Below, piece after piece: positions 13,882 to 49,084 of a DNA stretch of 64,000 nucleotides. Position 1 is the stretch's first letter. Each line of letters opens with the position of its first letter. This DNA is from an uncultured bacterium. GTDB taxonomy: Bacteria > Patescibacteriota > Minisyncoccia > Phycocordibacterales > GWA1-40-21. Position numbers and translations under genes: made by a program. Location: positions 504-64,503 of the forward strand of contig CAIJNK010000011.1 in NCBI GenBank assembly GCA_903822075.1, in the 5' to 3' direction. Below the pieces are notes generated by a model. That model ran no database searches. It was given only the letters and a program-made list of their open reading frames with translations, and was not told the origin of the DNA.

Positions 13882-14649
13882 TTAGAATTGATTTACTAAT
13901 CTTAAATCTCCGGAATACATCAAACGCACATCATCGATGCCGTATTTGAGCATAATAATCCTGTCCACTCCCATACCAAAAGCAAAACCTTGCCATTCTC
14001 TAGAATCAACATTCACACCTTCCAAGACTTTCGGATGCACCATCCCCGCACCGACCACCTCCACCCAGCCTGTGCCCTTACAAACCGGACAAGACTGTCC
14101 CTCTTTCAGGTCTCGGCCACCATTACATTTAAAACAGGATATGTCCGCTTCCAAGCCCGGTTCCACAAACGGGAAAAAGCTAGGACGAAAACGCACTTCC
14201 ACATCTCGTTCAAAAAACTTATCAAAAAATGTATTCAGAGTTGATTTTAAATCACTCATGTTAGCGTCCTTAGTGATCATGAGTCCCTCCAGCTGATGAA
14301 AAACCATCTCATGTGTGGCGTCCGTGGCTTCATTTCTAAAAACCTTGCCGTAGCAGACCATCTTAAACGGCGGCTTGTTTTTTTCCATATAACGTACTTG
14401 CACCGCACTAGTCTGTGTTCGCAATAACTTTCTTTCCGGATCATTTGGAGATTGCTTGAGCCAAAAGGTATCCTGCATATCTCGGGCGGGATGATCTTTA
14501 GGCACATTCAAAGCGTCAAAATTATAATGTTCCGTCTCAATTTCCGGCCCGTCGACCAAGGAAAAACCCATCTCATAGAAGATGGCATTGGCTCGATTAA
14601 TAAACTGTGTCATAGGGTGTATATGACCTTTTTCGGTCTTTTGTTCCAT
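13882..14649 (-). CDS. pheS: phenylalanine--tRNA ligase alpha subunit (short form, with Cys4 insertion)
   Basis: 255 aa; class II aaRS motifs (FDALNVPKDHPARDMQDTFW; GAGMVHPKVLE; FAFGMGVDRIIMLKYG). CFKC...CPVC insertion before motif 3. Confidence 0.9.
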   Translation of the reverse strand: MEQKTEKGHIHPMTQFINRANAIFYEMGFSLVDGPEIETEHYNFDALNVPKDHPARDMQDTFWLKQSPNDPERKLLRTQTSAVQVRYMEKNKPPFKMVCYGKVFRNEATDATHEMVFHQLEGLMITKDANMSDLKSTLNTFFDKFFERDVEVRFRPSFFPFVEPGLEADISCFKCNGGRDLKEGQSCPVCKGTGWVEVVGAGMVHPKVLEGVNVDSREWQGFAFGMGVDRIIMLKYGIDDVRLMYSGDLRLVNQF

Positions 14650-14687
14650 CCGCTTATCCTAACATAAACCCCACAAACAGAAAACCC

Positions 14688-14740
14688 CACCGACGCAGGC
14701 CGTGGGGCTCTGTGTTGATGGGGTCACTAATTTTTCAGAA
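14688..14740 (-). repeat. terminator-containing repeat (copy A) downstream of 14755..15015
   Basis: AACAGAAAACCCCAC-loop-GTGGGGCTCTGTGTTGATGGGGT; homologous to 15836..15890. On the minus strand forms a G/C stem followed by TTTTCTGTTTG. Confidence 0.5.
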
Positions 14741-14754
14741 CAAACCAGTTACCG

Positions 14755-15015
14755 CTACAGAAATTCTTCAGCGATCTCAGCTAAGGATTGATCTCCGATG
14801 TATACCCTGGGAAATACATTGGGTCCGAGGAATGGAAGTGGACCAACTGTCCCTTCGGAGAAAAAGAGACGAATCCCTTTTTCTTTGACTTCACCCGTAG
14901 TATAAATGCCGAGGTACATTGGTCGGTCAGAGACTGCATCCACCGAAATCCCATGTCGCCCAGTTAGACACGCATTCATATGTGCAAGCAATCTTTTGGC
15001 CTGATCAATTCTCAC
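14755..15015 (-). CDS. hypothetical small protein (cassette A ORF)
   Basis: 86 aa; GC higher than neighbours; flanked by the same promoter and terminator elements as 15893..16264 but with an unrelated sequence. Confidence 0.35.
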   Translation of the reverse strand: MRIDQAKRLLAHMNACLTGRHGISVDAVSDRPMYLGIYTTGEVKEKGIRLFFSEGTVGPLPFLGPNVFPRVYIGDQSLAEIAEEFL

Positions 15016-15082
15016 TTGTCACCAGTTTTTCTGCAGATCTCTCTGCTTGTGCTGTTTCAACTCCGAAATCCTAACTGTAGCA

Positions 15083-15112
15083 AGTATAGCATCTTTGAGT
15101 TAAAAAGTCAAT
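15083..15112 (-). promoter_or_regulatory. sigma70-like promoter (TTGACTTTT-N11-ATGCTATACT) for cassette A ORF
   Basis: Minus strand TTGACTTTTTAACTCAAAGATGCTATACT: -35 TTGACT, 17-nt spacer, extended -10 TGCTATACT. Confidence 0.5.
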
Positions 15113-15138
15113 AGGTAAAAATAACCTTGTTTCTAGGG

Positions 15139-15810
15139 CTATTTTTCTGAGTTTTTCTTCAAAATTACCTGCCATTCCGCTTTTAGATCATGGTATTTAT
15201 TTTCAGACTGATCTTCCTTTATTTCCTCCACGGTCAAGCCATGATCCTCAGCCAATCTTCTGATTTCTGATTCAGTAAAATAATGCTGATAAACACCCAC
15301 CTCTTTTCCCCCTTGTACCTGATAAGTTTTTCCGCCCAGATCATTTTCTTGGGTCAAAGTTTCGTTTTGTTTTGGTAATTGTGCAGTAGATCTCAAGGTG
15401 AGTAAAATAAGGGTATTTTCTTTTACGACTCTTACAATTTCGGAAAATACCGTATCCAAACCGTGATCATCATTATAATCAAGAACTCTGTTCGAAATCA
15501 GTGAATCAAAAGAAGCGTCACTAAAAGGTAAATGATGAATATCCGCAACAAGAGCATCCGACCGCGGATAATCAGCTAATATTTGTTGTGTTTTTCTAAC
15601 TCCTTCTTGCGATAAATCCACGGCGGTCACATCAATTCCCTTCTCGGCTAAATATTTACTGTGCCGGCCGGCGCCACAGCCTAGATCCAGACAACTTTGG
15701 CCGGGAATAAGAAAATTATCAATAAAATAGACCACGATGGAGCGAGGGGAGGTTTCTTCCTTTTTACTATACTTTTCATCATACATTCCGGTCCCATAAT
15801 TTTGTTCCAT
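15139..15810 (-). CDS. class I SAM-dependent methyltransferase
   Basis: 223 aa; motif I LDLGCGAGRHSKYLAEKG, motif II/III pattern (VDLS ... DSLISNRVL). Confidence 0.7.
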   Translation of the reverse strand: MEQNYGTGMYDEKYSKKEETSPRSIVVYFIDNFLIPGQSCLDLGCGAGRHSKYLAEKGIDVTAVDLSQEGVRKTQQILADYPRSDALVADIHHLPFSDASFDSLISNRVLDYNDDHGLDTVFSEIVRVVKENTLILLTLRSTAQLPKQNETLTQENDLGGKTYQVQGGKEVGVYQHYFTESEIRRLAEDHGLTVEEIKEDQSENKYHDLKAEWQVILKKNSEK

Positions 15811-15835
15811 CCTCTGATTCTAACATGTACGCAAC

Positions 15836-15890
15836 AAACAGAAAACCCCACTAGCGTGAGCTGGGGGCTCCGTGTTAGTGGGGTTTGATT
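15836..15890 (-). repeat. terminator-containing repeat (copy B) downstream of 15893..16264
   Basis: AACAGAAAACCCCACTAGCGTGAGCTGGGGGCTCCGTGTTAGTGGGGT; about 80% identical to copy A over about 55 nt; hairpin plus T-tract on the minus strand. Confidence 0.5.
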
Positions 15891-15892
15891 AC

Positions 15893-16264
15893 CTAATCTA
15901 GCTCGTAAGACTCCTGGATGGCCGCTGCAAACGGCATGAAGAGACAAAGGACAAGGCTGAAGGCAATAAATGCGCCAATCACCAGGATAGGCATACTCAA
16001 GACTCCAATCTCATCGCCAATCCTCGTAATTTCCTCTGCGGAATTATTCAGCCAATGGAAACCTGCCGTGAGTATGATTGCCGCTACCAGTCCGGCTAGC
16101 CACATTCGAAGCCTCGGCCAAAGAAAAGACCAAAGACCCTCAGTCCTGATCCAGCCAAGCTTCCGCTGATCAATTCTGCCCCGTATCACCGCCACCACCA
16201 AGGTACCGATGAAGTAAATCAGGACAAGAATGAATGGCGACTGAACCGACAATAGCTCTTTCAT
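15893..16264 (-). CDS. small integral membrane protein (cassette B ORF)
   Basis: 123 aa; three predicted TM helices; GC higher than surroundings. Confidence 0.35.
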   Translation of the reverse strand: MKELLSVQSPFILVLIYFIGTLVVAVIRGRIDQRKLGWIRTEGLWSFLWPRLRMWLAGLVAAIILTAGFHWLNNSAEEITRIGDEIGVLSMPILVIGAFIAFSLVLCLFMPFAAAIQESYELD

Positions 16265-16331
16265 TTTCTCTTTTCTCCCTTTATATTTTCACGTTTAGAA
16301 CTGTTTCGATGTGGTATTCTTTACTTATTCA

Positions 16332-16361
16332 AGTATAGCATAAATATGTGTAAAAGTCAAT
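16332..16361 (-). promoter_or_regulatory. sigma70-like promoter (TTGACTTTT-N10-ATGCTATACT) for cassette B ORF
   Basis: Minus strand TTGACTTTTACACATATTTATGCTATACT; same grammar as 15083..15112. Confidence 0.5.
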
Positions 16362-16375
16362 TATACCAGAGAATA

Positions 16376-16406
16376 GCAAAAATAGCCCTATTTCTAGGGC
16401 TATTTT
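16376..16406. terminator. intrinsic terminator hairpin after rpoD
   Basis: AAAATAGCCCT-ATTTCT-AGGGCTATTTT, perfect 11-bp stem. A degenerate copy overlaps the stop of the methyltransferase at 15113..15146. Confidence 0.55.
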
Positions 16407-16416
16407 AAGAGAAACT

Positions 16417-19336: not shown

Positions 19337-20485
19337 TTAATTTGTACACTTTCTAGCCAAAGCCGGGCAGGCAATATTTGCACCAGCGTTTGGCAACTCG
19401 CAGTTATTGTTATCCACCGCCATCATGCCTTGATAACCGTTATTGCATGCTCCCCAACCGCAAATCCAGTTTGACGTGCAGGAAGTAGTAGTGGCTTGAT
19501 CTAAAACACACTTATGATTTATACATCTATTAGCCGGAAATAGTGGCCCGCCACCAGGACCGGCGCCTATAAGCTGTGGGCAATCAGTATCAACTTTGCA
19601 TTGTAAAGCTGGTGTTGAAATCGGAGCTAAGACCTTAAACGTCTTCACAATATTCACCGCCTCCTCCCCGCCCAAGGCATCGGTAAAACCCCACCAGCGT
19701 GGTGGCGTGGCAAAAATATAATTCTGATTTTCTCCCACTTCACCGGGACCAACCGGCGCGGCGCTCACGGCGACCTTTTCCGCTGAAATAAGTTTCCAAA
19801 CATCTGGCGTGATAATCATAAGCGGAATATCCTGCCAAGGTTGGCTCGGCGTGGACTGCGGATTTTTAAAGATTAATTTTGTCCCAGTGTAAGTAGTAGT
19901 GCCATCAATTAGCCATCCAGTCCAAGTACTTTTAACCACGGTATACCCCCTCCATGAAGCCGGAAATTGCATGGTAAAACCATATTCTGTATTGGTGTAA
20001 GTTTCCACCGAGAAAATTGGTGTTAATAATTGGGCCGATTTTAATGAATCCTCAAGGGCAAATACTTGCGTGTAAGCATAATCTAAAACCTTTGGATCTA
20101 GCGAGCAGGGGTTGGTGGATCGAAGATAAAAGATGTTTTTATCACCGATAGTTATAATGGCTGAAATTTCATCGTTATTAAGTATCGTTGTGGTACTGGT
20201 ATTGCGTAAAAAGATACTCCCTAATGAATCAGTGTCTGCACGACAAACATCTCCTCCCATTTTTATTAGAGATTTTGAAGTAAAGCCCACACTTTTCGAG
20301 TCAGTGTTATAATTATATGTCAGGTCTTCTATTCTGGATGAAAGAGGTATTCCAATCCCAAGTTCTTTTATTTGAAGAAAGTTTAAAGGTGCTTCTACCC
20401 TCTTATTTTGGCAGATAAACATGACTCCGATTATTAGGATAATGATGACTATAATTATGAAGAGAAAAGTTTTTTTATTTTTCAT
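19337..20485 (-). CDS. membrane-anchored exported protein with Cys-rich C-terminal domain (paralog of 25672..26826)
   Basis: Start moved to internal ATG (MKNKKTFLFIIIVIIIL...). N-terminal anchor ending NKRVEAP, shared motif YTNTEYGFTMQFPASW, and a C-terminal region with more than 12 Cys. Confidence 0.45.
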   Translation of the reverse strand: MKNKKTFLFIIIVIIILIIGVMFICQNKRVEAPLNFLQIKELGIGIPLSSRIEDLTYNYNTDSKSVGFTSKSLIKMGGDVCRADTDSLGSIFLRNTSTTTILNNDEISAIITIGDKNIFYLRSTNPCSLDPKVLDYAYTQVFALEDSLKSAQLLTPIFSVETYTNTEYGFTMQFPASWRGYTVVKSTWTGWLIDGTTTYTGTKLIFKNPQSTPSQPWQDIPLMIITPDVWKLISAEKVAVSAAPVGPGEVGENQNYIFATPPRWWGFTDALGGEEAVNIVKTFKVLAPISTPALQCKVDTDCPQLIGAGPGGGPLFPANRCINHKCVLDQATTTSCTSNWICGWGACNNGYQGMMAVDNNNCELPNAGANIACPALARKCTN

Positions 20486-21545
20486 GATTTTTTTTCTTCT
20501 TGACGGCTGATAAAATCTTTTTAACTTCCCGATCAAAATCCGAAATATAATTTTTATCCTGCTCCACCTTGTATTTTTCATACTCTTTGAAAGCCAAGGC
20601 AAGAGCCACCTCATGACTTATTTTACCGGCGTTTGTCAATATTTCATACTCGCTAAATTTCAGGAAGGCATTAAGCTTAATGACCCAATCTTTCATCGTC
20701 ATTGCCTTACCCCTGGCCGCCTGCATCTCGGCGTAATCCAAATACATATTTCCGATCCGATTCAAATGTTCCAATTCTTTTTTATCTAAATAATTCTTGG
20801 CAATTATCGTATCGCTTGGCATTATTTTCCCTTCCGGCGAACGTCTCCAGGAAGTTAGCCCCATTTTTTCTTTCTTGCTACTTACCCTGTCTGTTATAAT
20901 TTCCGCCGCCGTCTTTCCGGTAATGGCAAAATGCAGTTTATTCTGAACTGTGGCAAAAAATTCCTTGCTCTCACTTGCCTTTGCTGAATAATCAATTGAG
21001 GTGGCATAAATATCCGTAATCTTCTGATAAATCATTCGCTCACTGGTGCGAATATCTTTTATTTCTTCGTATAATTCATCAAAATATCTGGTACTGAAAC
21101 GAGAACCGTATTTCATCCTATTTGTATCCAAAGCATAACCCTTGTGAATGTAATTTTTCAAAATCCCCGTCGCCCATTGCCTAAACTGCGTACCTCTTTC
21201 GGAATTTACCCTATAACCCACGGCGATAATGGCTTCTAATGAATACATCTGGGATTTTCTCTCGACTTCTCTTTCTCCTTCCGTTTGAACTTGTAAGAAA
21301 TCCTTACAAGTTGAATTTAGGCTGACTTCCTTTTCTGAATAAAGAGTTTTCAGATGTTGAGTAATATTTTGAGGAGTAGTCTCAAATAATTCAGCCATTC
21401 TCCTCTGGGTTATCCAAATATTTTCATCAGCATATACCACTTCAATATTCACCGAACCGTCCGGTGATTGATAGAATGATATTTGATTATCTGGTATTTT
21501 TTTCATATTCAATCTCTCTTTTATTTTTTCTACAGGTGTGGACAT
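20475..21545 (-). CDS. RhuM-family protein (virulence-associated / RM-associated DNA-binding family), carrying a duplicated dnaG N-terminal peptide
   Basis: 356 aa; RhuM-family signature (ISFYQSPDGSVNIEVVYADENIWITQRRMAELFETTPQNITQHLKTLY). First 13 aa (MSTPVEKIKERLN) are identical to the dnaG N-terminus; the real start may be the internal MKKIPDNQ. Confidence 0.7.
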   Translation of the reverse strand: MSTPVEKIKERLNMKKIPDNQISFYQSPDGSVNIEVVYADENIWITQRRMAELFETTPQNITQHLKTLYSEKEVSLNSTCKDFLQVQTEGEREVERKSQMYSLEAIIAVGYRVNSERGTQFRQWATGILKNYIHKGYALDTNRMKYGSRFSTRYFDELYEEIKDIRTSERMIYQKITDIYATSIDYSAKASESKEFFATVQNKLHFAITGKTAAEIITDRVSSKKEKMGLTSWRRSPEGKIMPSDTIIAKNYLDKKELEHLNRIGNMYLDYAEMQAARGKAMTMKDWVIKLNAFLKFSEYEILTNAGKISHEVALALAFKEYEKYKVEQDKNYISDFDREVKKILSAVKKKKNHEK

Positions 21546-21560
21546 TAAGAATGGTCAGAC

Positions 21561-21821
21561 CTAATTAATTAATCCTTTACTATTCAAACAATCTTTATAC
21601 CAAAAATCAGCCTTCTCCTGTTCTGCTTTATTAATTTTAATCATATCATTACCCAACTCTTCCTTTTCGATATCACTCGTTAAATCCAACCTACTTTCAG
21701 AAACATATTTTTTACATTCTTTTCTAATATTTGATGGCCTTAACTGAAACCAATAAAAAATACACACTAAAATAGCTAGAATTAATATAATTACATATTT
21801 AAATTCTTTTATTTTTTCCAT
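21561..21821 (-). CDS. small membrane-anchored hypothetical protein
   Basis: 86 aa; single N-terminal TM (YVIILILAILVCIFYWF), charged C-terminal part. Confidence 0.3.
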   Translation of the reverse strand: MEKIKEFKYVIILILAILVCIFYWFQLRPSNIRKECKKYVSESRLDLTSDIEKEELGNDMIKINKAEQEKADFWYKDCLNSKGLIN

Positions 21822-21967
21822 ATTTTTTTAATTAGATTAATAAACAATCCAATTATAGCACCTTTGGACTGGAAACCCCTCCTATTCTTAGGAGGGGTCG
21901 CCATTCCGATGGCGGGGGTGGTTCTCTTCCCCTCCTTAGTTAAGGAGGGGTTAGGGGCGGTTGTGTT

Positions 21968-30404: not shown

Positions 30405-30440
30405 GACTTGACAAGAAAAATAGGGTATGCTATACTTGAA
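30405..30440 (+). promoter_or_regulatory. sigma70-like promoter for the cold-shock gene
   Basis: Plus strand TTGACA-17 nt-TATACT with ATGCTATACTTG-type extended -10; about 80-nt 5' UTR typical of csp genes. Confidence 0.5.
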
Positions 30441-35985: not shown

Positions 35986-36076
35986 AAAATTTTTAAATAA
36001 AAAAAGCGTGGAGCTCGAGGATTGTTTTCACAACCCTACAAACTCCACACTCATCAGGACCAAAGTCCCTAAGGCA

Positions 36077-37252
36077 TCAAGCGGCAGTCGTTTCGAGTGC
36101 TCCCGCTGCGTCATTAAAGACACCGATCACCCACTCGGATGATTTCAGAAGTTCACCGATGGTATCCCCGTGCCGACAGAAACGGGCATCGAATTCAACT
36201 TCGAGCGGCAGACCAGTCATGGCTGACCAGCTCACCCCGGCCCGAATCGTAGCCACCTGATCTTCCACCCACTCCGGCAGACCTTGACCCGGCAAAAAGT
36301 CATTGTCCACGTACTGCGGGAAGTCACCGATTGGCGTACCGCCCTCCACGGACAAGAGCTTGGTAAAGTTCACTCCACCAAGACCGCCGGAATTCAGATG
36401 AATCCGCCCGCCAAAAACGTTGGCGGAAATTGCCTGATTCATGGCGTCCACGAACTTCTGACCGCTACCGCGACTGTGGCAGAACTCTCCCTGCCACTGC
36501 GCAATGTGACCGCCGTAACGAGTGTTGATCTCGTTGATCCCCTTGATCTCCAAGGTAGTGTCCGTGAACACGTCAATGTAGCAGGGATCACCGGCCGGCT
36601 TACCTTCAATGAGAAGGTTTGACCCGTCAATGAAGCCAAACTTCAGGGCGTCCGCCAGAGCGCCACTCAGACCATCGATGATCGTGCGCCACTCTTCGAG
36701 CTGCGGGTTAAGATCATGCCCGAGAAGAACGTTGTCCCCACTGATGACACGACCCCAACGGATTCCATCCGGACCGGTCCAGTAGATCACGCTGCCTTCA
36801 TGTCCTTCCATCTTGACCCGTCGCGAAGCCATAAAGCTCAGGACCATCATGTCATGAGCCAACTGACGTCGTTCGGGATCCGGATTAATGAAGGCGCCAT
36901 AGTCACTCCCCGGCAGACCAAACCCAGGCGGAATAATCCGCCCAATCCGAGGGTAACTACCGGCATCAGCTCCTTCCATCCACTCGTCGAGGCTAATCGC
37001 CCGGGGATTATTCCATTTGGCGCTTTTGCCGACCTGAGTATCTTCCGTCGGCACACACAGTTCATGCCACCAATGTGCCGACACGGCAATCGTAATGCCG
37101 TACTTGGCCAGGAGCACCTCGTTCAAAGCAGCAATCGCTGCCAAGGCTTCCTTCATGGTTGTGAAGCCACCGGCCGTCGGATTCCCGAAAGCCATAATCT
37201 GCTTCAACATATGCCAACTGCCCACCAACAATTTCAATACGGGTTTATGCAT
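36077..37252 (-). CDS. sugar isomerase of the xylose-isomerase-like TIM-barrel superfamily, L-rhamnose isomerase-like
   Basis: Start moved to internal ATG with strong SD (GGAAGAGGAGAG-N5-ATG). Motifs SAHWWHE, ASRRV, VIYWTGPDG and GGRIHLNSGG resemble recalled RhaA/L-RhI signatures. About 57% GC. Confidence 0.5.
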   Translation of the reverse strand: MHKPVLKLLVGSWHMLKQIMAFGNPTAGGFTTMKEALAAIAALNEVLLAKYGITIAVSAHWWHELCVPTEDTQVGKSAKWNNPRAISLDEWMEGADAGSYPRIGRIIPPGFGLPGSDYGAFINPDPERRQLAHDMMVLSFMASRRVKMEGHEGSVIYWTGPDGIRWGRVISGDNVLLGHDLNPQLEEWRTIIDGLSGALADALKFGFIDGSNLLIEGKPAGDPCYIDVFTDTTLEIKGINEINTRYGGHIAQWQGEFCHSRGSGQKFVDAMNQAISANVFGGRIHLNSGGLGGVNFTKLLSVEGGTPIGDFPQYVDNDFLPGQGLPEWVEDQVATIRAGVSWSAMTGLPLEVEFDARFCRHGDTIGELLKSSEWVIGVFNDAAGALETTAA

Positions 37253-37351
37253 GTTTCTCTCCTCTTCCTTGTTTTTCTTTTTTCTTCTTTCCCATCCAAA
37301 CAAAACCAAATCACAGCAGAAAAATCAGTGCTTCACCTCCATATTTTATAA

Positions 37352-37408
37352 CTCCCCACCTCATGTGAAAGAGCGCTTATCTGGGGAAAAAGCTAACATT
37401 AATTTAGG
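37352..37408 (-). promoter_or_regulatory. conserved ~55-nt 5' leader element (copy 1) upstream of the rhamnose-isomerase-like gene
   Basis: TCCCCACCTCATGTGAAAGAGCGCTTATCTGGGGAAAAAGCTAACATTAATTT, near-identical to 39459..39515. Confidence 0.5.
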
Positions 37409-37441
37409 CGCTTGGCAAATTTTGATTGTAAAAATAACAAT

Positions 37442-37472
37442 AAAAAAACGGGTAGAGATTACTCTCTACCCG
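37442..37472 (-). terminator. intrinsic terminator downstream of fucI
   Basis: A-run then GGGTAGAGATTACTCTCTACCC on the plus strand, giving hairpin plus T-run on the minus strand. Confidence 0.55.
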
Positions 37473-37501
37473 CGCGTTGAGTATTACCTCATTGCTTCGT
37501 A

Positions 37502-39304
37502 TCAGCCGTACACCGGTCCCAGTTTCTCGCAGGCGCGGAAGTCATTCCCGCCGCAACGATCCCAGAACGTCGGCCGGAAGATATCCGCCTTCGGTATGTT
37601 GTGCAGATCCACCGGGATGCGCAACATAGCATTCACCGTGATGAGATCCCCCCCGATCAGACCGACGGAGTTCGCATCATGATTAGGCCCGATCTGTGTC
37701 ATATAGTCATATGACGACATGTCCCGCGGTTTCCAAAACGACTCTGGCCAAGTGCCGTCAGTAACCCGACTGATATGGTCCGCCACCTTTATGGGCAGCT
37801 CCACCGTCTCACCTTCCACCACGGAACAAGTCAGCATGTCGCCGGCCATGTTGTAGCGGTAGGCGGTCATCGGAATGTCACCCGGTGTTCGGTAATGACT
37901 GGACAAACCATCACCCGGAAAATACTCCAGGTTTGCCGCCATGTACTCTGTATGTGTTGTCGCTCGCTTCACGAGCTCATGCTGTAGATCCGTATTACTA
38001 CGAAGTACAGCCATGGACTGTTGAATTGTCAGATCCTTGAGGCCGGTAAACTCCCGCACCAGACTCAGAACGTCAATACTGTAATCGAGCGCCCCAGCTC
38101 CGGAATTACGTTTGTCAATGAGCCCTTTCGGACACACCGCACTCACGTCAACCCCAGTGGCTTTTTGGATACTCGCAACCGTCCAGTTCGTCCTGATGTC
38201 GGCAAAGAGCTGTGGCATGCCACCACTCAGCAAAGTTGCCATCATCATTCCGAGCCCGTTTTTGCAGTCATTTTCCGTGGCCACAGTGTGCGGCGCGCGG
38301 AAACCATTCCAATCAAACGAACTGCAGAGTATGGACTCGGTCAGATCGAAGTTCGGATACAAGTCCGTCCAATCGCGCTGCCCTTGAGTCCCGGCCGCAA
38401 TGGCGTTGAAGCCCTGGGCGTGTTCCACATCAGCCTTGAAACCTTGCTTCCTGCCCACTGTCGGATTAGCCAAGAGAGGATTCCCGATCATCATATCTCT
38501 GACAATCAGGGTCATCTTCAAGCAATCCCGAAGCAAAGCTTCCGTCACTTGCGGTCGAGCCTGCTGTGCCGGAATTGGCGCCCAGTTGAAACGGAATTGG
38601 TCCTTCATGAACATGCAGGCCCTCTCGAGCTCCTCGTGATCATAAAAACCGCGATCCATTCGTCCCCGGATAGCCACCATGTCCACGGATTTGGTCCCCA
38701 ACCCAAAATATTTGAGCATCGTATTTCGGTCAACGTCCGAACCAATGATACCCATGGACACCCCGCCAACGGACAAGTAATTCTTGCCCCGGATCTCGGC
38801 CACCGCCGCCGCACACCGAGCAAAACGGAGCAGCCGTCCACGCACATACGGCGTAAAGTCGTCTGCCTCGTCTTCCAGGTTTTCATTATAGATGCAGAAG
38901 ATCGGACGCTTTTTCTCGTCCATCGCCGCACAGAAGGCCTTGAGTTCCACCGCGCCCGGTCGGTCGGTCTGATTCAAGCCGTAAGCCGCAAACTGCCATT
39001 CCGAGCTGCCCAAGCCCATAATCGCGCTCATAAGTTCGTCACTATAGGCCCAAGACCGGCTCACAAAAATGACAGACGACACGCCGGCCTTTTGGAATTT
39101 GACTTGGGTTAAAGCGCCGGACCGCACACCGTACACAATCTCCGGCGCCACGACAGTCTGCACCCTTGTCCCATCGGGCAAGAACACATTGTTCGCAATG
39201 AGATTGGCCACCTTATCAGCCAACGCCCACGTTGCCACCGAGTTTGCCTCAAAGGCACCCGTCCGCCACTGGCACGATGCCAATAGTGGGAATTGTGCCA
39301 ACAA
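37502..39304 (-). CDS. fucI: L-fucose isomerase (apparent 5' frameshift)
   Basis: 600-aa ORF with strong similarity to FucI (DRPGAVELKAF, LLRFAR, SVGGVSMGIIGS, WTDLYPNFD, SSFDWNGFRAPHTVATEND, MLRIPVDLHN, FRACEKLGPVYG). The conserved N-terminal peptide (IPTIGIVPVADG, compare E. coli LPKIGIRPVIDG) is encoded in the -1 frame over the first codons. Confidence 0.8.
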   Translation of the reverse strand: MLAQFPLLASCQWRTGAFEANSVATWALADKVANLIANNVFLPDGTRVQTVVAPEIVYGVRSGALTQVKFQKAGVSSVIFVSRSWAYSDELMSAIMGLGSSEWQFAAYGLNQTDRPGAVELKAFCAAMDEKKRPIFCIYNENLEDEADDFTPYVRGRLLRFARCAAAVAEIRGKNYLSVGGVSMGIIGSDVDRNTMLKYFGLGTKSVDMVAIRGRMDRGFYDHEELERACMFMKDQFRFNWAPIPAQQARPQVTEALLRDCLKMTLIVRDMMIGNPLLANPTVGRKQGFKADVEHAQGFNAIAAGTQGQRDWTDLYPNFDLTESILCSSFDWNGFRAPHTVATENDCKNGLGMMMATLLSGGMPQLFADIRTNWTVASIQKATGVDVSAVCPKGLIDKRNSGAGALDYSIDVLSLVREFTGLKDLTIQQSMAVLRSNTDLQHELVKRATTHTEYMAANLEYFPGDGLSSHYRTPGDIPMTAYRYNMAGDMLTCSVVEGETVELPIKVADHISRVTDGTWPESFWKPRDMSSYDYMTQIGPNHDANSVGLIGGDLITVNAMLRIPVDLHNIPKADIFRPTFWDRCGGNDFRACEKLGPVYG

Positions 39305-39458
39305 GCATTCGGTTTGTCACCGTAAACGTTCTCGGAATTATTATTTCACCTGTCTCGCTCATTCTTCTGTCCTCTTTTCTTTTTTCTACCGGTTTGAGAT
39401 TACAATCAAAAGCAAAAAACGCCAACAAAATATCTTAAGTTTTCCTCCTTTGTTTTGA

Positions 39459-39515
39459 CTCCCCACCTCATGTGAAAGAGCGCTTATCTGGGGAAAAAGC
39501 TAACATTAATTTGAC
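39459..39515 (-). promoter_or_regulatory. conserved ~55-nt 5' leader element (copy 2) upstream of fucI
   Basis: CCCCACCTCATGTGAAAGAGCGCTTATCTGGGGAAAAAGCTAACATTAATTT in the same position and orientation relative to fucI as copy 1 is to its gene. Confidence 0.5.
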
Positions 39516-39568
39516 ATTATGGCAAATCTAAAAAATATTATTATATATTTTTTGTCGAAATTTTGACA

Positions 39569-39598
39569 TAAAAAAACCGGCGTCAGAGTGACTGCCGG
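39569..39598 (-). terminator. intrinsic terminator downstream of 39643..39900
   Basis: CCGGCGTCAGAGTGACTGCCGG hairpin preceded by A8 on the plus strand (T-run on the minus strand). Confidence 0.55.
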
Positions 39599-39642
39599 TC
39601 CGTTCCCTCTAAAAGAAAGAACTATATTTTCGCCTGCTGCGC

Positions 39643-39900
39643 TTATTTCTGCGGAGCGGCGCCGGTGGTTGCCGCCCGGTGCTTCCGATAGGAGCTCAGA
39701 ATGCTCCGACCGGCCGCCCTGACCGCCGATGATCCCTTACCGGTCTTGACCCAGTCCGTGAAGGCCAAGCCTTCGGACTTCACTTCTTCGAGGGTCGTGC
39801 TGATGGCCTTGCCCACTTGGCGTTTGGCCCCTGCCCACTCCCGCCCGATCTGTCCTCCACATCCTGCGCCCGCCGTTCCGGTCCCTGTTTTCGTTGCCAT
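39643..39900 (-). CDS. small basic Gly/Ala-rich hypothetical protein
   Basis: 85 aa; own promoter (TTGCAT-17-TATAGT) and terminator; no homology recognised. Confidence 0.3.
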   Translation of the reverse strand: MATKTGTGTAGAGCGGQIGREWAGAKRQVGKAISTTLEEVKSEGLAFTDWVKTGKGSSAVRAAGRSILSSYRKHRAATTGAAPQK

Positions 39901-39942
39901 GGTACCCTTTCCTTTCTCTATTGTTACTTACCGACTGAACCT

Positions 39943-39975
39943 AGACTATACCATACTTTACAATTTTATGCAAAT
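39943..39975 (-). promoter_or_regulatory. sigma70-like promoter for 39643..39900
   Basis: Minus strand TTGCAT-17 nt-TATAGT. Confidence 0.4.
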
Positions 39976-39979
39976 AAAA

Positions 39980-40010
39980 GCGCCCACTGATTCATCATCA
40001 AAATGGGCGC
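39980..40010 (-). terminator. intrinsic terminator after the ABC ATPase gene
   Basis: GCGCCCA-loop-TGGGCGC followed on the minus strand by TTTTATTT. Confidence 0.5.
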
Positions 40011-40046
40011 AGTCTCTTCGATAAAGAACTCCTCCTCAGCTCTGCA

Positions 40047-41042
40047 TTATGTCACTATGTCCCGCTCGTGGAAGGTACCATTCAGATGATCCTCTTCCAA
40101 TGACAAGGACTGGAACGACTTGGGATGCTCCAAGTTGAACTCGGCCACATGGCGCCGGTGATTGGGGTTGAACCCCGTATCCAGCACCTGTTTCATCAGA
40201 GCCCCAAACTCGGCGGTCTTCTTGACCTCCGTGGACATCGCATGCTTATCAAGCGGTATGTCCATAACGATCCGTGACCCCGAGAGTTTACTTCCGTCAT
40301 CCTGGTCTGATGTCCAGTACTGCGACAAGACGAGTAGACGTGAAGACAGGAAGACCGCTTCCTCCAAATCATGAGTGACAAAGATGACCGTCATCTTATG
40401 TTCCTCCCACAACTGTGAAATCAGCACCTGCATATCTTCACGCGTTCCCGGATCCAGTGCCCCAAACGGCTCGTCCATACATAACACCTTCGGCATGCCG
40501 AACATGTCAATCGTGACGAGGGTTTGAGCGATGGCCACCCGCTGCCGCATTCCGCCGGAAAGTTCCTGCGGATATTTATTTGCGGCGTCGGCCAGGCGCA
40601 TACGTTCCAGATATTTCATCGTGATCAGGTTGGCTTCCCGACGCCACTTTGGACGCCAGAGGTCATGGAGGTCCGCTTGGAACTCCAATCCCAGCCGAAC
40701 GTTTTTGGCCACCGTCAGATTCGGCAGCAGGGTGTATTGTTGAAACACCACCCCGCGTTGCTTATCCGGGAAACCGACCGGCCGACTAAAGACGTCGAAG
40801 TGCTTGGCCTGCTGGACCCTCTCTTGTCCAGTGATGAGCCTCAAGAGTGTGGACTTGCCACAACCCGAAGGTCCCACCAGACAAATGAATTCACCAGACT
40901 CCGACAGCAAATCGATATTCGTCAGCACCCGTTTGGTTCGGCCCGTTTCCGTATCCGGATAACCGTGATACGCGCTCTCGATGTGCAGAGCTTCCTCCCC
41001 GGTGATAACCGGTTTTGCTTTTACGCCATTTGTTCCGTTCAC
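40047..41042 (-). CDS. ABC transporter ATP-binding protein (NitT/TauT family) with C-terminal extension
   Basis: Walker A LVGPSGCGKST, signature LSGGMRQRVAIAQTL, Walker B LCMDEPFGALD, H-loop. Start set to GTG preceded by AAGGAG, 10 nt after the permease stop; the track ORF extends further to 41150. About 100-aa C-terminal extra domain. Confidence 0.8.
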   Translation of the reverse strand: MNGTNGVKAKPVITGEEALHIESAYHGYPDTETGRTKRVLTNIDLLSESGEFICLVGPSGCGKSTLLRLITGQERVQQAKHFDVFSRPVGFPDKQRGVVFQQYTLLPNLTVAKNVRLGLEFQADLHDLWRPKWRREANLITMKYLERMRLADAANKYPQELSGGMRQRVAIAQTLVTIDMFGMPKVLCMDEPFGALDPGTREDMQVLISQLWEEHKMTVIFVTHDLEEAVFLSSRLLVLSQYWTSDQDDGSKLSGSRIVMDIPLDKHAMSTEVKKTAEFGALMKQVLDTGFNPNHRRHVAEFNLEHPKSFQSLSLEEDHLNGTFHERDIVT

Positions 41043-41052
41043 GTTTGTCTCC

Positions 41053-41892
41053 TTACTTGTCCTCGGGTTTGTACCAAGGGAAACATTTTCGGCGAATGAT
41101 CTGTAACACCAGGTCCATGCTATACGCAATGGCTGAGATGTACAGTACATACGGGATGATCAGAGACATGTTCATGTATCGCTGTTGCAAGTAGATGCGA
41201 TAACCCAACCCTTCGGTCGAGGCCACCGCTTCCGCCGCAATAACGAATATCCAAACCTGTCCCAAATTTACCCGCACCAACTCAATCAACTGGGGCAGTA
41301 TCTGTGGAGACACTACCCGAACGACAATCTGCGATTGCGACGCCCCGAGAGTTTGTGCCTTGACGATCAACTCGTTTGGCACTTTCTCCACGGCTTGTTG
41401 GATGCTCCGCACTAACGGTATGCCGACACCGAATACAATGAGGAAGATTTTCGATCCCTCACCGATCCCCATAAAAACCAAGATGATTACCAAAATGGCT
41501 AATGGATTGATGTTCGAACACAACGTTAAGATGGGTGTAAAAATGGATTTGGCACTGGGGAACACCCCAATAACCATACCCAGAATATAACCCAGCACGG
41601 CCGACACCCCAACACCAATGCCTAAACGGCAAAGGCTCGATTTAGTATCCGTCCAAAACAAGACTTGCTCAGTTCGTTTATCTGGAACCGTAGCTATCTC
41701 CTTCATGGACTCATACATCTGCGACGCTCCAGGCATGAGCTTGTCCTGCGGATTATCCACGTGCCGAATGTACGACGCCGTAAAATATCCGCCAATCAAG
41801 AGGACCAGAGGCAAAAGCCCCAGCACCCTCGAGAACACCGGCCCTGGTCGGGCATTGATGCCCCAAAACATTGGAATTCTAACCTTTTTCAC
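41053..41892 (-). CDS. ABC transporter permease (NitT/TauT family)
   Basis: 279 aa; 6 TM helices, EAA-like loop. Confidence 0.75.
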   Translation of the reverse strand: MKKVRIPMFWGINARPGPVFSRVLGLLPLVLLIGGYFTASYIRHVDNPQDKLMPGASQMYESMKEIATVPDKRTEQVLFWTDTKSSLCRLGIGVGVSAVLGYILGMVIGVFPSAKSIFTPILTLCSNINPLAILVIILVFMGIGEGSKIFLIVFGVGIPLVRSIQQAVEKVPNELIVKAQTLGASQSQIVVRVVSPQILPQLIELVRVNLGQVWIFVIAAEAVASTEGLGYRIYLQQRYMNMSLIIPYVLYISAIAYSMDLVLQIIRRKCFPWYKPEDK

Positions 41893-41955
41893 GCTATTTT
41901 CTCCCTTCCTTTCATACTTCTGACAAAGTGCCCCTACCCTAAATATCTCAATACA

Positions 41956-41983
41956 TTATACACAAAAATTACTTCTTGTCAAG
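41956..41983 (-). promoter_or_regulatory. sigma70-like promoter for the permease-ATPase unit
   Basis: Minus strand TTGACA-16 nt-TATAAT. Confidence 0.45.
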
Positions 41984-41994
41984 GACTCAGGCAT

Positions 41995-42025
41995 AAAAAA
42001 GCTCCCCCGTTTTCTTGGGGGGAGC
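41995..42025 (-). terminator. intrinsic terminator after the substrate-binding protein gene
   Basis: GCTCCCCCC-GTTTTCTT-GGGGGGAGC with A-run before it on the plus strand (T-run after it on the minus strand). Confidence 0.55.
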
Positions 42026-42053
42026 TTACGCTCGAACTTGAGCAGAAGGGCTC

Positions 42054-43130
42054 TTAGAGCTTACCTTCGGCTGCCGCTTTCATGTAGGTTGTGGTGTACG
42101 TGATTTTCACGTTCTTGGGATCACCCAGAACGGTTGCGTCCGGGAACTTGATACCGATCAGATCGGCGCTCTTCGCTCCCTGGCCCAGAAGACCCTGCGC
42201 AAAGCAGAAGTCCATCACTTGCCGACACGCTGTCTTATTCTCCGGGCTGGCCGCAAACGTTGCGCCGTCCTTGGGAGAGTAATACATAAATGTCGTCTTG
42301 AGTTGGGCCTTGAACTCAGCCACTGTGCCACCGGCAAACTTCGCCATGGCTTCAATCGCTTTGTCCGTCTGACTGCCCTGACCATTCATGACTGCCATCG
42401 TCTCGTACCAGGCGCCGACCAAGGCTTTCTTGACCGCTTCCGGCGCATCCTTCCGAATCACCATCAAATCCTGAATTTCTCCAGGGATCTCTGATGAGTC
42501 AAAGACCAAGGTGACATTCGGCAGATTACGGATGTTCATGAGTATTGGGTTCCAGGTGACACACGCCCCTTTGGAACCGGAACTCGCGAAGGTCGCGCCG
42601 ATATTTGCATCAGAAGTGTTAACTTCCTTTACATCGGAATTCTTCATTCCATGTTTCTGCAAACCACGCGACAAAGCGTAACTCGAAACGGAACCCTGAA
42701 CGATAAGTACGTCGCGGCCTTTGATGTCGGTGAATTTCTTTCCGTTCATCAGACCGACGCCGTCATTACCATTACTGTAATCGCCGACCACTTCCACCTC
42801 CGAATCCACTCCACCGACGGCGGGCATGTCCAGCGCATCCATGATAGTCATGGCGCACCCGACGGCTTCACCGGAGGTGTACTGATTGATCGAAGTGACG
42901 TAGTCATTGATGAGCACAACGTCGATCTTGACGCCGAGCTTGTCCGCCCATTTCTTCATGATGCCGGAGTCCACCATATACTGATAGGGCTCCCAGCCCG
43001 TGTAGTGGGACCAGACGTACCGATAGGTCTTGTCCGTCGACGCTTGCTTGTCTGCCGCAACGGCAGGACTCGTAAACACCGACGCCAGAACCGCCAAACC
43101 AACCACGCACAATGTAATGACTTTCTTCAT
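42054..43130 (-). CDS. ABC transporter substrate-binding protein (NMT1/SsuA/TauA-like)
   Basis: 358 aa; signal peptide (ASVFTSPAVAADK); NMT1/THI5-like periplasmic binding fold features. Confidence 0.65.
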   Translation of the reverse strand: MKKVITLCVVGLAVLASVFTSPAVAADKQASTDKTYRYVWSHYTGWEPYQYMVDSGIMKKWADKLGVKIDVVLINDYVTSINQYTSGEAVGCAMTIMDALDMPAVGGVDSEVEVVGDYSNGNDGVGLMNGKKFTDIKGRDVLIVQGSVSSYALSRGLQKHGMKNSDVKEVNTSDANIGATFASSGSKGACVTWNPILMNIRNLPNVTLVFDSSEIPGEIQDLMVIRKDAPEAVKKALVGAWYETMAVMNGQGSQTDKAIEAMAKFAGGTVAEFKAQLKTTFMYYSPKDGATFAASPENKTACRQVMDFCFAQGLLGQGAKSADLIGIKFPDATVLGDPKNVKITYTTTYMKAAAEGKL

Positions 43131-43259
43131 GACGAACTACTCCTTTTCTTTTGCTTCTTTTTCTGCGTTACGTTTTACCTCGGGGAGCAACCCTGTGCTC
43201 CCCGAGGCCTTTCTCTGTTCCTTTTTCTTTCTTTTCTCTGTCTCCCCACGTACCACGGT

Positions 43260-44477
43260 TTAGGCCGCGGCCGTCGTCGGCTCGAGGTCGAGGGTGATCG
43301 CCGGACGTTTCGCGTTACCGCGTTCCATCCGTTCAATCTTCTTTTCGGCCTCATCCGCCATCCGCTTCATCTCCACCATCCGCTGCGCCATCTGAGGCAG
43401 AGCGTCCTGTTTGAACTTGGCCATCTGTTCGAAGGCCGAGTCCAGATCGGCATAAACCGACTTCAATGCTTCCATACTGATGGACTGGGTGGCGGACATC
43501 TTGAAAATTTCCGCTCCCTGAGTCTTGAGCTGCCGCGCGTTTTGCACCATGAGCTCCGCAGTGGTCTGATCCACCGCCTGAACCGAGCGCAAAACCATCC
43601 GCTGTTTCGCCAAGGCCATAGCCAAGACGACAGCGATTTCCAGCGCTCTGACCGTAATGGTCTCGCACCGCTTAGCGCCACGGATAAGCTCACGATTCGT
43701 CCGAATCGCAAACTCATACGACATGACACCCTGCTGGTTGACGGTCAGATTCTGCTGCAGGTCACCGATCCGCTGACGCAAGGTGAAGAGAATTTCTTCC
43801 TCCATAAACTTGCGCTGCTCACTGCCCGCTTCCATCTTCTCGATGGCGGCGGAGAGTTTCTCGTTGACCAACATGAGCGTCTGGATGACTTTCTGCAACC
43901 GCAGAATTTCCGAACGCATCACGATCTGGTCAGCCCGCAAGGTCTCATTGTCTCGCAACAATTCCTTGGCGCCTTCCCGGATCTGCATGACGATCGAATC
44001 AATCACCCCACCCGCGCTTTGCCACCTGGTGAAGTACGAGTTCATGGTCGTGCCCACGCCTGGAATCCAAGCAAAGGCCCTTCCAACGCCGCCCGGCTCC
44101 AAGAGCTTGTAGCGGTTCGGATTGATTTTGTCCACGTTGACCTTCAGGTCAATCAGGGACTTGGCCACCGAGCTGCCTTCCGGCTGGGAAGCCAGAACGC
44201 GGATCTGATCCTTGAGCAAACCGCTCTTGCGCGCCAAGGTTTCTTCAACATTGGCACCGGCATTCTCGACGGCGGTCCGGACTTCCTGCTGATGTGCAGG
44301 ATCCGTAACATCACCGGTGAGAAGCGACGCAGTCCATTCATCGGCCATCTTGACGACGGCTGGATCAACCTGCTGTGACGCAAGCTGATTGGCGCCCACA
44401 AAACCAAGATCACTCTGGATCTGGCTGGCCTGCGGAACCGCTAACGGCTTCGTGTCTTCCTGAACTTGAACTGGCAT
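43260..44477 (-). CDS. telA: toxic anion resistance protein, TelA family
   Basis: 405 aa; entirely alpha-helical/coiled-coil. Sequence pattern and length match the TelA/KlaA/YaaN family, supported by the adjacent XpaC-like gene. Confidence 0.7.
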   Translation of the reverse strand: MPVQVQEDTKPLAVPQASQIQSDLGFVGANQLASQQVDPAVVKMADEWTASLLTGDVTDPAHQQEVRTAVENAGANVEETLARKSGLLKDQIRVLASQPEGSSVAKSLIDLKVNVDKINPNRYKLLEPGGVGRAFAWIPGVGTTMNSYFTRWQSAGGVIDSIVMQIREGAKELLRDNETLRADQIVMRSEILRLQKVIQTLMLVNEKLSAAIEKMEAGSEQRKFMEEEILFTLRQRIGDLQQNLTVNQQGVMSYEFAIRTNRELIRGAKRCETITVRALEIAVVLAMALAKQRMVLRSVQAVDQTTAELMVQNARQLKTQGAEIFKMSATQSISMEALKSVYADLDSAFEQMAKFKQDALPQMAQRMVEMKRMADEAEKKIERMERGNAKRPAITLDLEPTTAAA

Positions 44478-44512
44478 GATACTGTCTCCTTTTTTTCTTA
44501 CGTTTGTTTTCG

Positions 44513-45367: not shown

Positions 45368-45439
45368 GAATTATCCTTTCATTTACACTGTATTTCCTAC
45401 ATGAACGTCAAAGACCATTCATACTTTTTCTACCAGACA

Positions 45440-45467
45440 GTATACACGAAATATTAAAATTGTCAAG
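45440..45467 (-). promoter_or_regulatory. sigma70-like promoter (TTGACA-16-TATACT) for the XpaC-like gene
   Basis: Minus strand TTGACAATTTTAATATTTCGTGTATACT; near-identical to the element at 51687..51715. Confidence 0.5.
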
Positions 45468-45481
45468 TCTTTCCAAGCATT

Positions 45482-45518
45482 AAAAAATACCGTACTCCCC
45501 TCGTGGAAAGTACGGTAT
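45482..45518 (-). terminator. intrinsic terminator after the AAA+ ATPase gene
   Basis: ATACCGTAC-loop-GTACGGTAT with A5 before it on the plus strand. Confidence 0.55.
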
Positions 45519-45541
45519 TAGACCTCGTAATCAGGCTCTCT

Positions 45542-47164: not shown

Positions 47165-47224
47165 AGTCTTTACCCTTTCTTATAACTGACTGACACGAGT
47201 TCATCTCAAAAAACTTCTGCCATA

Positions 47225-47256
47225 TGTATAGCATTTATTATTGAAAAAGTCAAGAC
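47225..47256 (-). promoter_or_regulatory. sigma70-like promoter (TTGACTTTT-N-ATGCTATACA) for the AAA+ ATPase gene
   Basis: Minus strand TTGACTTTTTCAATAATAAATGCTATACA. Confidence 0.5.
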
Positions 47257-47354
47257 TAAATTTTTTATTAAAAAATGCCCAAATATGTAATAAAAGAACC
47301 CGTCCTGCCATCACAGCAAAACGGGTTCGCACTAACAACTTCAGACACGAAACC

Positions 47355-49026: not shown

Positions 49027-49030
49027 CAAT

Positions 49031-49060: not shown

Positions 49061-49084
49061 CTCGACTTCACCTCATCATAGAAC

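Follow-up and report, generated by a model that had tools for sequence, protein, structure and literature searches.

Transcription units with related flanks and unrelated small genes between rpoD and pheS of an uncultured patescibacterium

The window analyzed here is a 64-kb stretch (64,000 nucleotides [nt]) of contig CAIJNK010000011.1, from an uncultured bacterium of the Patescibacteria. On its minus strand, between rpoD and pheS, two small open reading frames (ORFs), orf123 and orf86, lie on either side of a methyltransferase (MTase) gene, each within a unit composed of a hairpin, a promoter, the small ORF, and a second hairpin. These units are referred to below as cassette 1 (orf123) and cassette 2 (orf86). 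A preliminary description had proposed this arrangement, and all of its parts were recovered, in place or nearly so. The units are self-contained and have common flanks and unrelated cargo, as had been claimed; the whole block is absent from five relatives, and the same frame surrounds a third unrelated ORF at the same site of another organism. Our preferred explanation, held at roughly even confidence, is that these are independent transcription units of a moron-like kind, that they occupy a hypervariable slot akin to a minimal mobile element, and that their cargo was replaced and did not diverge in place. That the frame swaps cargo is an extrapolation from three instances, and on present evidence there is no sign of a self-mobile element or of a new class of mobile element.

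RESULTS

The rpoD-pheS interval holds a lineage-specific insertion

The gene order on the minus strand is dnaG (19333-17621), rpoD (17616-16417), the inserted block, pheS (14649-13882), pheT, and gyrB. Both neighbors of the block are conserved: rpoD, on the left, encodes a sigma-70 factor with Pfam Sigma70 regions r1.1 to r4, and pheS, on the right, matches Pfam tRNA-synt_2d (3e-100). The closest public genomes are metagenome-assembled genomes of uncultured Patescibacteria of the Paceibacteria type. PheS is 78% identical to that of the nearest species representative and 83-87% identical to metagenome proteins, and its N-terminus, ME.K.EKGH, is native to the clade.

The gap between rpoD and pheS measures 1,767 nt in the window and contains orf123, the MTase gene, and orf86. 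In five relatives, pheS follows rpoD directly, with spacers of 21 to 79 nt: P0088 (PheS identity of 87%; spacer of 21 nt), L125 (83%; 21 nt), L098 (84%; 41 nt), L101 (84%; 79 nt), and L008 (78%; 33 nt). Since the slot is empty in these five relatives, the 1,767 bp constitute a lineage-specific insertion. The contents of the slot range from nothing in the five relatives to a single small ORF (orf88) in contig L107, an MTase gene beside pheS in contig L123, and orf123, MTase, and orf86 in the window. The interval is a hypervariable slot and a local hot spot for gene gain.

The GC content at third codon positions (GC3) of the inserted genes (0.58 for orf123, 0.33 for MTase, and 0.40 for orf86) differs modestly from that of rpoD, pheS, and pheT (0.45-0.49). 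The overall GC content is 0.50 for orf123, 0.46 for orf86, and 0.39 for MTase, against a window mean of 0.454; the small ORFs, described earlier as GC-richer than their surroundings, are so only to a modest degree.

The downstream flank is the native spacer or a copy of it

The flank that follows each small ORF is a repeat, here called B. Copy B1 (15800..15890, minus strand) consists of a hairpin (15843-15886), a T-tract (15834-15842), an extended -10 element TGTTAGAAT (15817-15825), 6 nt, and ATGGAACAAAA (15800-15810). Copy B2 (14639..14740, minus strand) has the same parts in the same order, namely, a hairpin (14683-14725), a T-tract (14673-14682), an extended -10 element TGTTAGGAT (14656-14664), 6 nt, and ATGGAACAAAA. 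The two copies are 81% identical, in line with the roughly 80% claimed for this repeat, and the similarity covers about 95 nt, not about 55 nt, and extends across the start codons of MTase and pheS. An exact 18-mer, GTGGGGTTTTCTGTTTGT, and a 27-mer common to B1 and B2 each occur twice in the window, versus 0.08 and 0.00 expected occurrences, respectively.

The hairpin of B is long and imperfect. Its 5' half pairs with a GGGG run, there are 18 consensus pairs, 3 compensatory, and the stem is followed by UUUUCUGUUUGU. Folding energies are -23.8 kcal/mol for B1 (z = -3.8) and -25.7 kcal/mol for B2, within an overall range of -24 to -27 kcal/mol and z values of about -3 to -3.8. Together with its T-tract, the hairpin is a predicted intrinsic terminator.

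The 3' half of B also occurs without any cassette. The spacers of L098 and L101 read GGGGTTTTCTGTTT-N13-TAGGAT-N6-ATG, which corresponds to this half of the repeat. Over 42 nt, the 3' half of B2 matches these spacers at 81-86% identity and B1 at 83%, that of B1 is 76-83% identical to B2 and to the L098 and L101 spacers, and the identities among the five sequences compared span 76-86%. Since B2 matches the spacers of cassette-free relatives, it is the native rpoD-pheS spacer, and B1 is a paralogous copy of it. The notion that the flanks are the ends of a discrete mobile element does not survive this orthology, nor the generic character of the promoter in the other flank (see below).

An extended -10 element, TGnTAnnAT, lies exactly 6 nt before ATG in all eight sequences compared (B1, B2, L098, L101, L107, L125, L008, and L123), and no conserved Shine-Dalgarno (SD) sequence was found at these eight pheS or MTase starts. 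The G's of TAGGAT vary among the spacers, where TAGAAT, TATTAT, and TAATAT are found too. Since they are not conserved, the motif is read as a -10 box and not as an SD sequence. With a -10 box 6 nt from ATG, transcription is predicted to start at or next to the A of the start codon, and from this promoter geometry we infer that the pheS and MTase mRNAs are leaderless. An MTase orthologue in another genome, preceded by TGATAAACT-TAAAAC-ATG, matches the start geometry of B. Three more gene starts in the window, at 56154 (plus strand), 55555 (minus strand), and 35967 (minus strand), have an extended -10 element 6-8 nt before ATG, which suggests that leaderless transcripts may be common in this genome.

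The upstream flank joins a cassette-specific hairpin and leader to a generic promoter

The other flank, module A, begins with a hairpin. A1 (16378..16406, minus strand), a predicted intrinsic terminator after rpoD, reads AAAATAGCCCTA-GAAA-TAGGGCTATTTT followed by a T-run and forms a 12-bp stem without mismatch (-16.2 kcal/mol; z = -4.1). The degenerate copy reported for this hairpin is indeed present: A2 (15117..15146, minus strand; -7.5 kcal/mol), the predicted terminator of MTase, is identical to A1 at 26 of 29 positions.

Each hairpin is followed by a predicted sigma-70 promoter. P1 (16332..16360, minus strand) has TTGACT-17-TATACT with a TG extension, and P2 (15083..15111, minus strand) has the same consensus. 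Promoters had been correctly assigned to both units, although with spacers of 10 or 11 nt; both are TTGACTTTT-N10-ATGCTATACT, and their spacers agree at only 2 of 10 positions. The motif is not particular to the cassettes, with seven matches in the window versus 0.21 expected. The core hexamers are intact in five of the seven and carry one mismatch in two (47225 and 52712). One match, at 5005, is inside a long ORF, and the consensus promoter is found at four further sites (30408, 47225, 52712, and 59563), three of which have a GC-rich ORF downstream. Given this recurrence and the dissimilar spacers, the similarity of P1 and P2 reflects a strong-promoter consensus and not common descent of the cassettes. 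The match at 30408-30436 (plus strand) agrees perfectly with the promoter consensus (TTGACA-17-TATACT plus a TG extension); it has no evident ORF downstream and no Rfam match and may drive an unannotated small RNA or micro-ORF.

The leaders of cassette 1 (16265..16331, minus strand), which holds TCGAAACAG and the SD sequence AAGGGAG, and of cassette 2 (15016..15082, minus strand), which holds GAAACAGCACAAGCAGAGAGATCTGCA, are both 67 nt long, and that of the L107 unit is 66 nt long. This conserved length supports the GTG at 15015 as the start of orf86. Unlike the promoter, the A hairpin is cassette-specific, and so is the 67-nt leader.

A third unit occupies the same site in another organism

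A search of metagenomes for the flanks had been proposed in the preliminary description, and it returned one true extra unit, besides the expected orthologous spacers. The unit lies on L107, a 1,036-nt JGI contig found by a metagenome scan for the spacer motif, between the same two genes of another organism and around a third unrelated ORF. L107 carries, in order, the 3' end of rpoD, a GC hairpin, an A-like hairpin (AAAAAGGCCTAGAAATAAGCCTATTTC, 296-325), the promoter TTGACA-18-TATACT, the 66-nt leader, the SD sequence AAGGAG, an ORF of 88 amino acids (aa) (orf88) with 2-3 transmembrane (TM) helices, a B hairpin, TGCTAGGAT-N6-ATG, and pheS, the latter of a different type with a long N-terminus.

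Compared with cassette 2, the L107 unit is 70% identical in the A hairpin, 74% in the leader, 82-87% (by segment) in the B hairpin, and 82% in the promoter half of B, and for each segment 0 of 1,000 shuffles reached the observed score. L107 and B2 share 20 consecutive identical bases across the inner stem-loop of the B hairpin. Of the three units, cassette 1 diverges most, and cassette 2 is nearer to L107 than to cassette 1. In rpoD, L107 is an outgroup (75% identity in DNA and 90% in amino acids), and the cassette-free relatives are 94-96% identical in amino acids. Since a third unrelated ORF is enclosed by the same A…B frame, the frame is probably a reusable expression slot with cargo turnover.

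The cargo ORFs are unrelated orphans

orf123 (15893..16264, minus strand) encodes an orphan small membrane protein with three predicted TM helices; it was called as a gene on 11 contigs and, like orf88 of L107, has a good SD sequence. orf86 (14755..15015, minus strand), likewise an orphan, encodes a soluble product; it starts with GTG, and its ribosome-binding site is weak. The TM predictions agree with the earlier assignment of one soluble product and one with three TM helices. orf123 found only itself among 5.8 billion proteins, and orf86 found only itself, as a called version of 74 aa, among 1.84 billion representatives. None of the cargo ORFs had a Pfam, NCBIfam, PHROG, or PADLOC match. 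As proteins, orf123, orf86, and orf88 are mutually unrelated, and the interiors of orf123 and orf86 have no significant DNA similarity, which bears out the claim that these two ORFs are unrelated. The ORF lengths exceed those obtained in shuffles (P = 0.0006 for orf123, 0.007 for orf86, and 0.015 for orf88), and GC content is higher at first than at second codon positions (GC1 > GC2) in all three; on both counts, they look coding. An AlphaFold2 single-sequence model of orf86 was uninformative, with a predicted local distance difference test (pLDDT) score of 43.

An exact in-frame 12-mer, AGAATTGATCAG, encoding RIDQ, is found in orf123 (codons 29-32, 16166-16177) and in orf86 (codons 2-5, 15001-15012); this sharing is marginal compared with shuffles (10/500; P of about 0.02). 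The possibility that the inserts are noncoding RNA genes (RNase P, tmRNA, 6S, or T-box) was rejected, as Rfam (E ≤ 1 locally; gathering threshold for the whole window) and ARAGORN returned nothing.

The window also has GC-rich accessory genes that share the promoter consensus of the cassettes, and orf123 resembles them. These comprise a block of 52-55% GC at 36000-53800 and the genes at 55668-56066, 56460-57029, and 58718-59503, in a region of about 42% GC. Their products include an L-fucose isomerase, an ABC ATPase, an AAA ATPase, an OmpA-domain protein, and several orphans, and no phage or recombinase domains were found among the 10 ORFs scanned. Three of the GC-rich genes use the TTGACTTTT-N10-ATGCTATACT promoter. 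Two paralogous secreted orphans, at 51837-52643 (minus strand; VKSTLIAVMV…) and 58718-59503 (minus strand; VKKSTLKMMAMV…), both have a GTG start, a similar leader ending in CAGAAGGAGA, and the consensus promoter.

The methyltransferase is embedded between the two units

The gene between the cassettes (15139..15810, minus strand) encodes a class I S-adenosylmethionine (SAM)-dependent MTase (Pfam Methyltransf_25/11, 4e-19), with about 30 orthologues in Patescibacteria that are 51-60% identical and have varied gene contexts. Its start codon lies within B1, and its TAG stop lies within the 5' arm of A2. Its N-terminal extension of eight residues, MEQNYGTG-MYD, fits the family (MEKNFGTA, MKEQFGTG; M-x-x-x-[FY]-G-T-x-MYD), for which reason the M9 start chosen by gene callers is probably wrong. 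An origin of the MTase N-terminus in pheS is neither favored nor disfavored by the residues, as the two N-termini next to the B copies each fit their own family, MEQN of MTase with MEKN and MKEQ and MEQK of PheS with the ME.K of the pheS clade.

In L123 (PheS identity of 85%), only a 128-nt spacer separates an MTase orthologue from the pheS gene downstream of it, and cassette 2 is absent; the contig ends upstream. Since MTase is present there without cassette 2, the two were separate acquisitions. The MTase also matches the PADLOC model mad2 (mads_2) at 5e-17 across the MTase domain, which is probably a generic SAM-MTase similarity and not evidence of a defense system.

Copy number, mobility, and population variation

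The A and B flanks have only two copies each within the window. No copies were found in 80 pheS-centered loci from representative genomes, in phage or plasmid collections, or in viral contigs, where 13 matches were at chance level. No recombinase was found among the ORFs scanned within about 10 kb, a subset of the window's ORFs, and neither att-like core sites nor a target-site duplication were found at the locus or in the 64 kb. The small ORFs gave no PHROG match and no phage BLAST match.

The 12 loci fetched from this species are at least 99.8% identical to the window and have the same arrangement, save for a junction in contig L006, and 11 contigs from several samples agree with the window. 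Contig L089 (2,727 nt) has only two differences from the window, at 14888 and 14902, 14 nt apart and both inside orf86. In L006 (ENA ERZ18626337 scaffold_198935), homology to the window starts exactly at the 5' edge of A1 (16406), with A>G at 16401, and the first 26 positions, GCCATATCTAAACAAATAATCACTTC, have no match in the window or the fetched loci. Either cassette 1 has an alternative left end here, or the assembly is chimeric at the hairpin.

A second family of terminator-hairpin blocks, ACCACCCC..CATC.GAATG plus CCCTCCTAAGAA.AGGAGGGG, was observed in the window at 21876-21965 (minus strand), in L098 (390-440 and 12726-12748), in L101 (3922-3966), and in L123 (316-363). It follows rpoC in the window and in L098 (98% identical) and rpoD in L101 (87-91%), and in L123 it is reverse-complemented between MTase and pheS (0/1,000 shuffles). 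The window's first hairpin after rpoC also has a match in L107, in the hairpin that comes first after rpoD. This second family looks like a dispersed repeat able to flip its orientation.

The interval between rpoC and dnaG (19337-21965, minus strand) is likewise variable in comparison with L098, L101, and L125. In the window, it contains an AT-rich (GC of 0.25) membrane ORF of 86 aa and an orphan of 425 aa; L098 has ORFs of 311 and 513 aa, L101 has an ORF of 138 aa, and L125 has none. The same string of conserved genes may have here a second hot spot of gene gain.

DISCUSSION

A possible history of the locus

In the explanation that we prefer, the ancestral state would have been rpoD, a terminator with a leaderless promoter, and pheS. 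The MTase gene would have been captured behind a copy of this spacer, possibly through the ATGGAA.AAA microhomology of the two N-termini. The duplication of B took in the first 11 nt of pheS, and B1 would supply MTase with a terminator, a promoter, and a start codon. The duplication may reach these 11 nt into the coding sequence because a leaderless promoter cannot work without the start codon that adjoins it. In module A, the hairpin would stop transcription of the upstream gene, and the consensus sigma-70 promoter, with the 67-nt leader, would drive the small ORF. In module B, the terminator would end the small-ORF transcript, and the extended -10 element (TGnTAGRAT) 6 nt before ATG would drive the next gene. 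The promoter-leader-ORF module would have been placed upstream of each B by recombination with DNA of the same frame, for example, by Campbell-type integration of a circle A-x-B-MTase, or by separate insertions. Cargo may have been replaced by homologous or illegitimate recombination in the common flanks, without a dedicated recombinase, and orf123, MTase, and orf86 would each have been acquired independently and wired as their own transcription unit from reused modules. The earlier picture of cargo exchanged between fixed regulatory flanks is retained here only in part, as one flank is the host's spacer, the other includes a generic promoter, and no evidence of dedicated mobility was found.

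Several points weigh against this history. The flanks of L107, an outgroup, are 74-87% like those of cassette 2, which needs either strong selection on noncoding DNA or horizontal transfer. The known cassettes number only three and share a single locus, and within the species no polymorphism was seen save the odd 26-nt junction in L006, a sister contig of L106. orf86 is without a good ribosome-binding site and is left uncalled by gene finders on most contigs, and no worked-out mechanism accounts for the precise in-frame embedding of MTase between a start codon in B1 and a stop codon in A2. The promoters, terminators, and leaderless start are predictions from sequence. Finally, cargo replacement is deduced indirectly, and vertical inheritance with several losses and fast ORF divergence would account for the locus with a lesser but appreciable probability.

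Other explanations

In this last alternative, to which we give perhaps one chance in several, one ancestral A-x-B unit was inherited vertically, tandem-duplicated, and lost in the relatives, and the ORFs diverged in place or arose de novo. Selection would have held the flanks as regulatory DNA, and no cargo would have been exchanged. The occupation of the same site in the window and in the outgroup L107 is consistent with it, as are the nearly constant leader length and the L098 spacer, which retains only the 3' arm and T-tract (GGGGTTTTCTGTTT) without a 5' arm and resembles a deletion scar. The RIDQ 12-mer common to orf123 and orf86 points in the same direction, and the location of both L089 differences in orf86 is a hint of fast evolution. 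However, at least four independent losses would be needed among the closest relatives, and flanks of 74-87% identity around unalignable interiors of differing length and protein type are hard to obtain by divergence alone. The GC3 values of the two ORFs and of MTase point to different sources, and the greater closeness of cassette 2 to L107 than to cassette 1 excludes a recent duplication within the genome. A tandem duplication of a whole A-x-B-y segment was considered separately and rejected. Neither x and x' nor y and y' (MTase and pheS) are related to each other, and the nearest counterpart of cassette 2 is in L107, not in cassette 1.

An improbable explanation is that the units are a mobile cassette, integron-like or hairpin-targeted, in which a recombinase that recognizes folded single-stranded DNA inserts the promoter-leader-ORF part site-specifically, immediately upstream of the B hairpin. 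All three units do lie directly 5' of an imperfect, bulged hairpin of the B type, homology in L006 ends exactly at the 5' edge of A1, and related terminator-hairpin blocks are dispersed in both orientations. Against this stand the lack of an integrase or transposase in the scanned ORFs around the locus or in the GC-rich island, the lack of attC cores (RYYYAAC and GTTRRRY) in B, and the promoter that each unit has of its own. The flanks are also restricted to two copies in 64 kb, with none in the 80 related loci or in the phage and plasmid collections and no target-site duplication. Equally improbable is the broader idea of a new kind of cassette, recombinase-independent or hairpin-targeted, in which promoter-leader-ORF modules are captured repeatedly upstream of dispersed terminator hairpins. 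If it were true, a terminator would double as a leaderless promoter, and orphan small proteins would be exchanged among distant ultra-small bacteria.

The order of elements in the E. coli pheST attenuator is promoter, short ORF, terminator, and pheS. The L107 cassette and cassette 2, both directly before pheS, have the same order, which raises the question of whether the small ORF is a leader peptide and B an attenuator of read-through to pheS, of the pheM-pheST or T-box type. We consider this very unlikely. No T-box (RF00230) or other Rfam match was found at E ≤ 1, and the ORFs have 86-123 codons with 6-8% Phe, contain no Phe run, and are mutually unrelated. A conserved extended -10 element follows the terminator, the same spacer would drive pheS in relatives that lack the ORF, and one of the units precedes MTase and not a tRNA synthetase.

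Type I toxin loci often occur as tandem repeats between genes, and two of the three cargo ORFs encode small multi-TM proteins behind strong promoters. Tandem-duplicated loci of the type I toxin-antitoxin kind, or other small membrane toxins, are nevertheless a slightly poorer candidate still: the ORFs encode 86-123 aa, versus under about 60 aa for such toxins, one product is soluble, promoter-like sites on the antisense strand number 6 versus 6.9 expected, and there are no PADLOC, Pfam, or PHROG matches. A coincidence of generic promoter and terminator composition, the poorest candidate, does describe the promoter but is refuted for A and B by the repeated 18-mer and 27-mer of B and by shuffles of the A hairpin and of the hairpin and promoter halves of B, of which 0 of 1,000 reached the observed score in each case.

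Significance

Patescibacteria (candidate phyla radiation, CPR) have tiny, highly syntenic genomes, in which gene gain and expression are little known, and the moron-like units at this locus offer a concrete example. Orphan small proteins and an MTase were added between essential operon genes and appear expressible through a few reused modules. If confirmed, the copying of a terminator and leaderless promoter together with a start codon would be a simple route of gene capture that needs no recombinase. The locus may also provide evidence for common leaderless expression in the phylum. The duplicated module of terminator and predicted leaderless promoter and the flank motifs are the most useful by-products of this work and can guide searches for patescibacterial orphan genes.

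Comparison with known systems

Promoters of leaderless mRNAs occur in Actinobacteria, Deinococcus, and archaea. Those proposed here resemble them in having a -10 element about 6-7 nt before ATG, no SD sequence, and a geometry conserved across orthologues; they differ in being predicted from sequence alone at this locus. The literature on leaderless promoters in Patescibacteria yielded incidental mentions only, and no paper describing them was found.

Repetitive extragenic palindromes (REP) and bacterial interspersed mosaic elements (BIME) are similar to the hairpins of this genome in that near-identical GC-rich blocks are found in both orientations and follow different operons at their 3' ends. 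The blocks observed here, however, look like functional intrinsic terminators, and no RAYT/TnpA transposase was seen.

With integron cassettes, the units share a single ORF orientation, an imperfect hairpin after each ORF, and unrelated cargo within similar boundaries. In contrast to integrons, no IntI integrase in the ORFs scanned and no attC cores were found, and the hairpins, of about 40 nt with T-tracts, are predicted terminators. Integron cassettes are also generally promoterless, whereas each unit here has a consensus promoter. Identification as an integron cassette was rejected on the grounds of integrase, cores, and promoters; as to the cores, B has CACTAAC or CATCAAC, in which the first base is not a purine, and GTTAGAA or GTTAGGA, in which the seventh is not a pyrimidine.

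In the minimal mobile elements of Neisseria, conserved genes bracket differing whole-gene cassettes or none (Saunders & Snyder 2002; Snyder 2007; definition quoted in PMC3082526). Such cassettes are taken in through homologous recombination between the flanks, following the uptake of DNA. Likewise, rpoD and pheS bracket different cassettes or none, and no dedicated mobility gene is involved in either case. The variation here is between species or genera and not between strains of one species, and the cassettes share internal regulatory modules, which falls outside the definition of minimal mobile elements.

Phage morons carry a promoter and a terminator of their own, deviate in composition from their neighbors, and often encode small membrane proteins, HK97 gp15 being an example (Hendrix/Juhala; reviewed in PMC3594210). 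The units described here lie in a bacterial chromosome, with dnaG, rpoD, pheS, pheT, and gyrB as neighbors, and not in a phage or prophage. Their flanks are common to the units and to another organism, and the 3' flank is the host's own spacer. Like morons, they are inserted between genes that are adjacent in relatives, have their own predicted sigma-70 promoter and factor-independent terminator, differ modestly in GC3 from the neighboring genes, and include small membrane proteins among their products.

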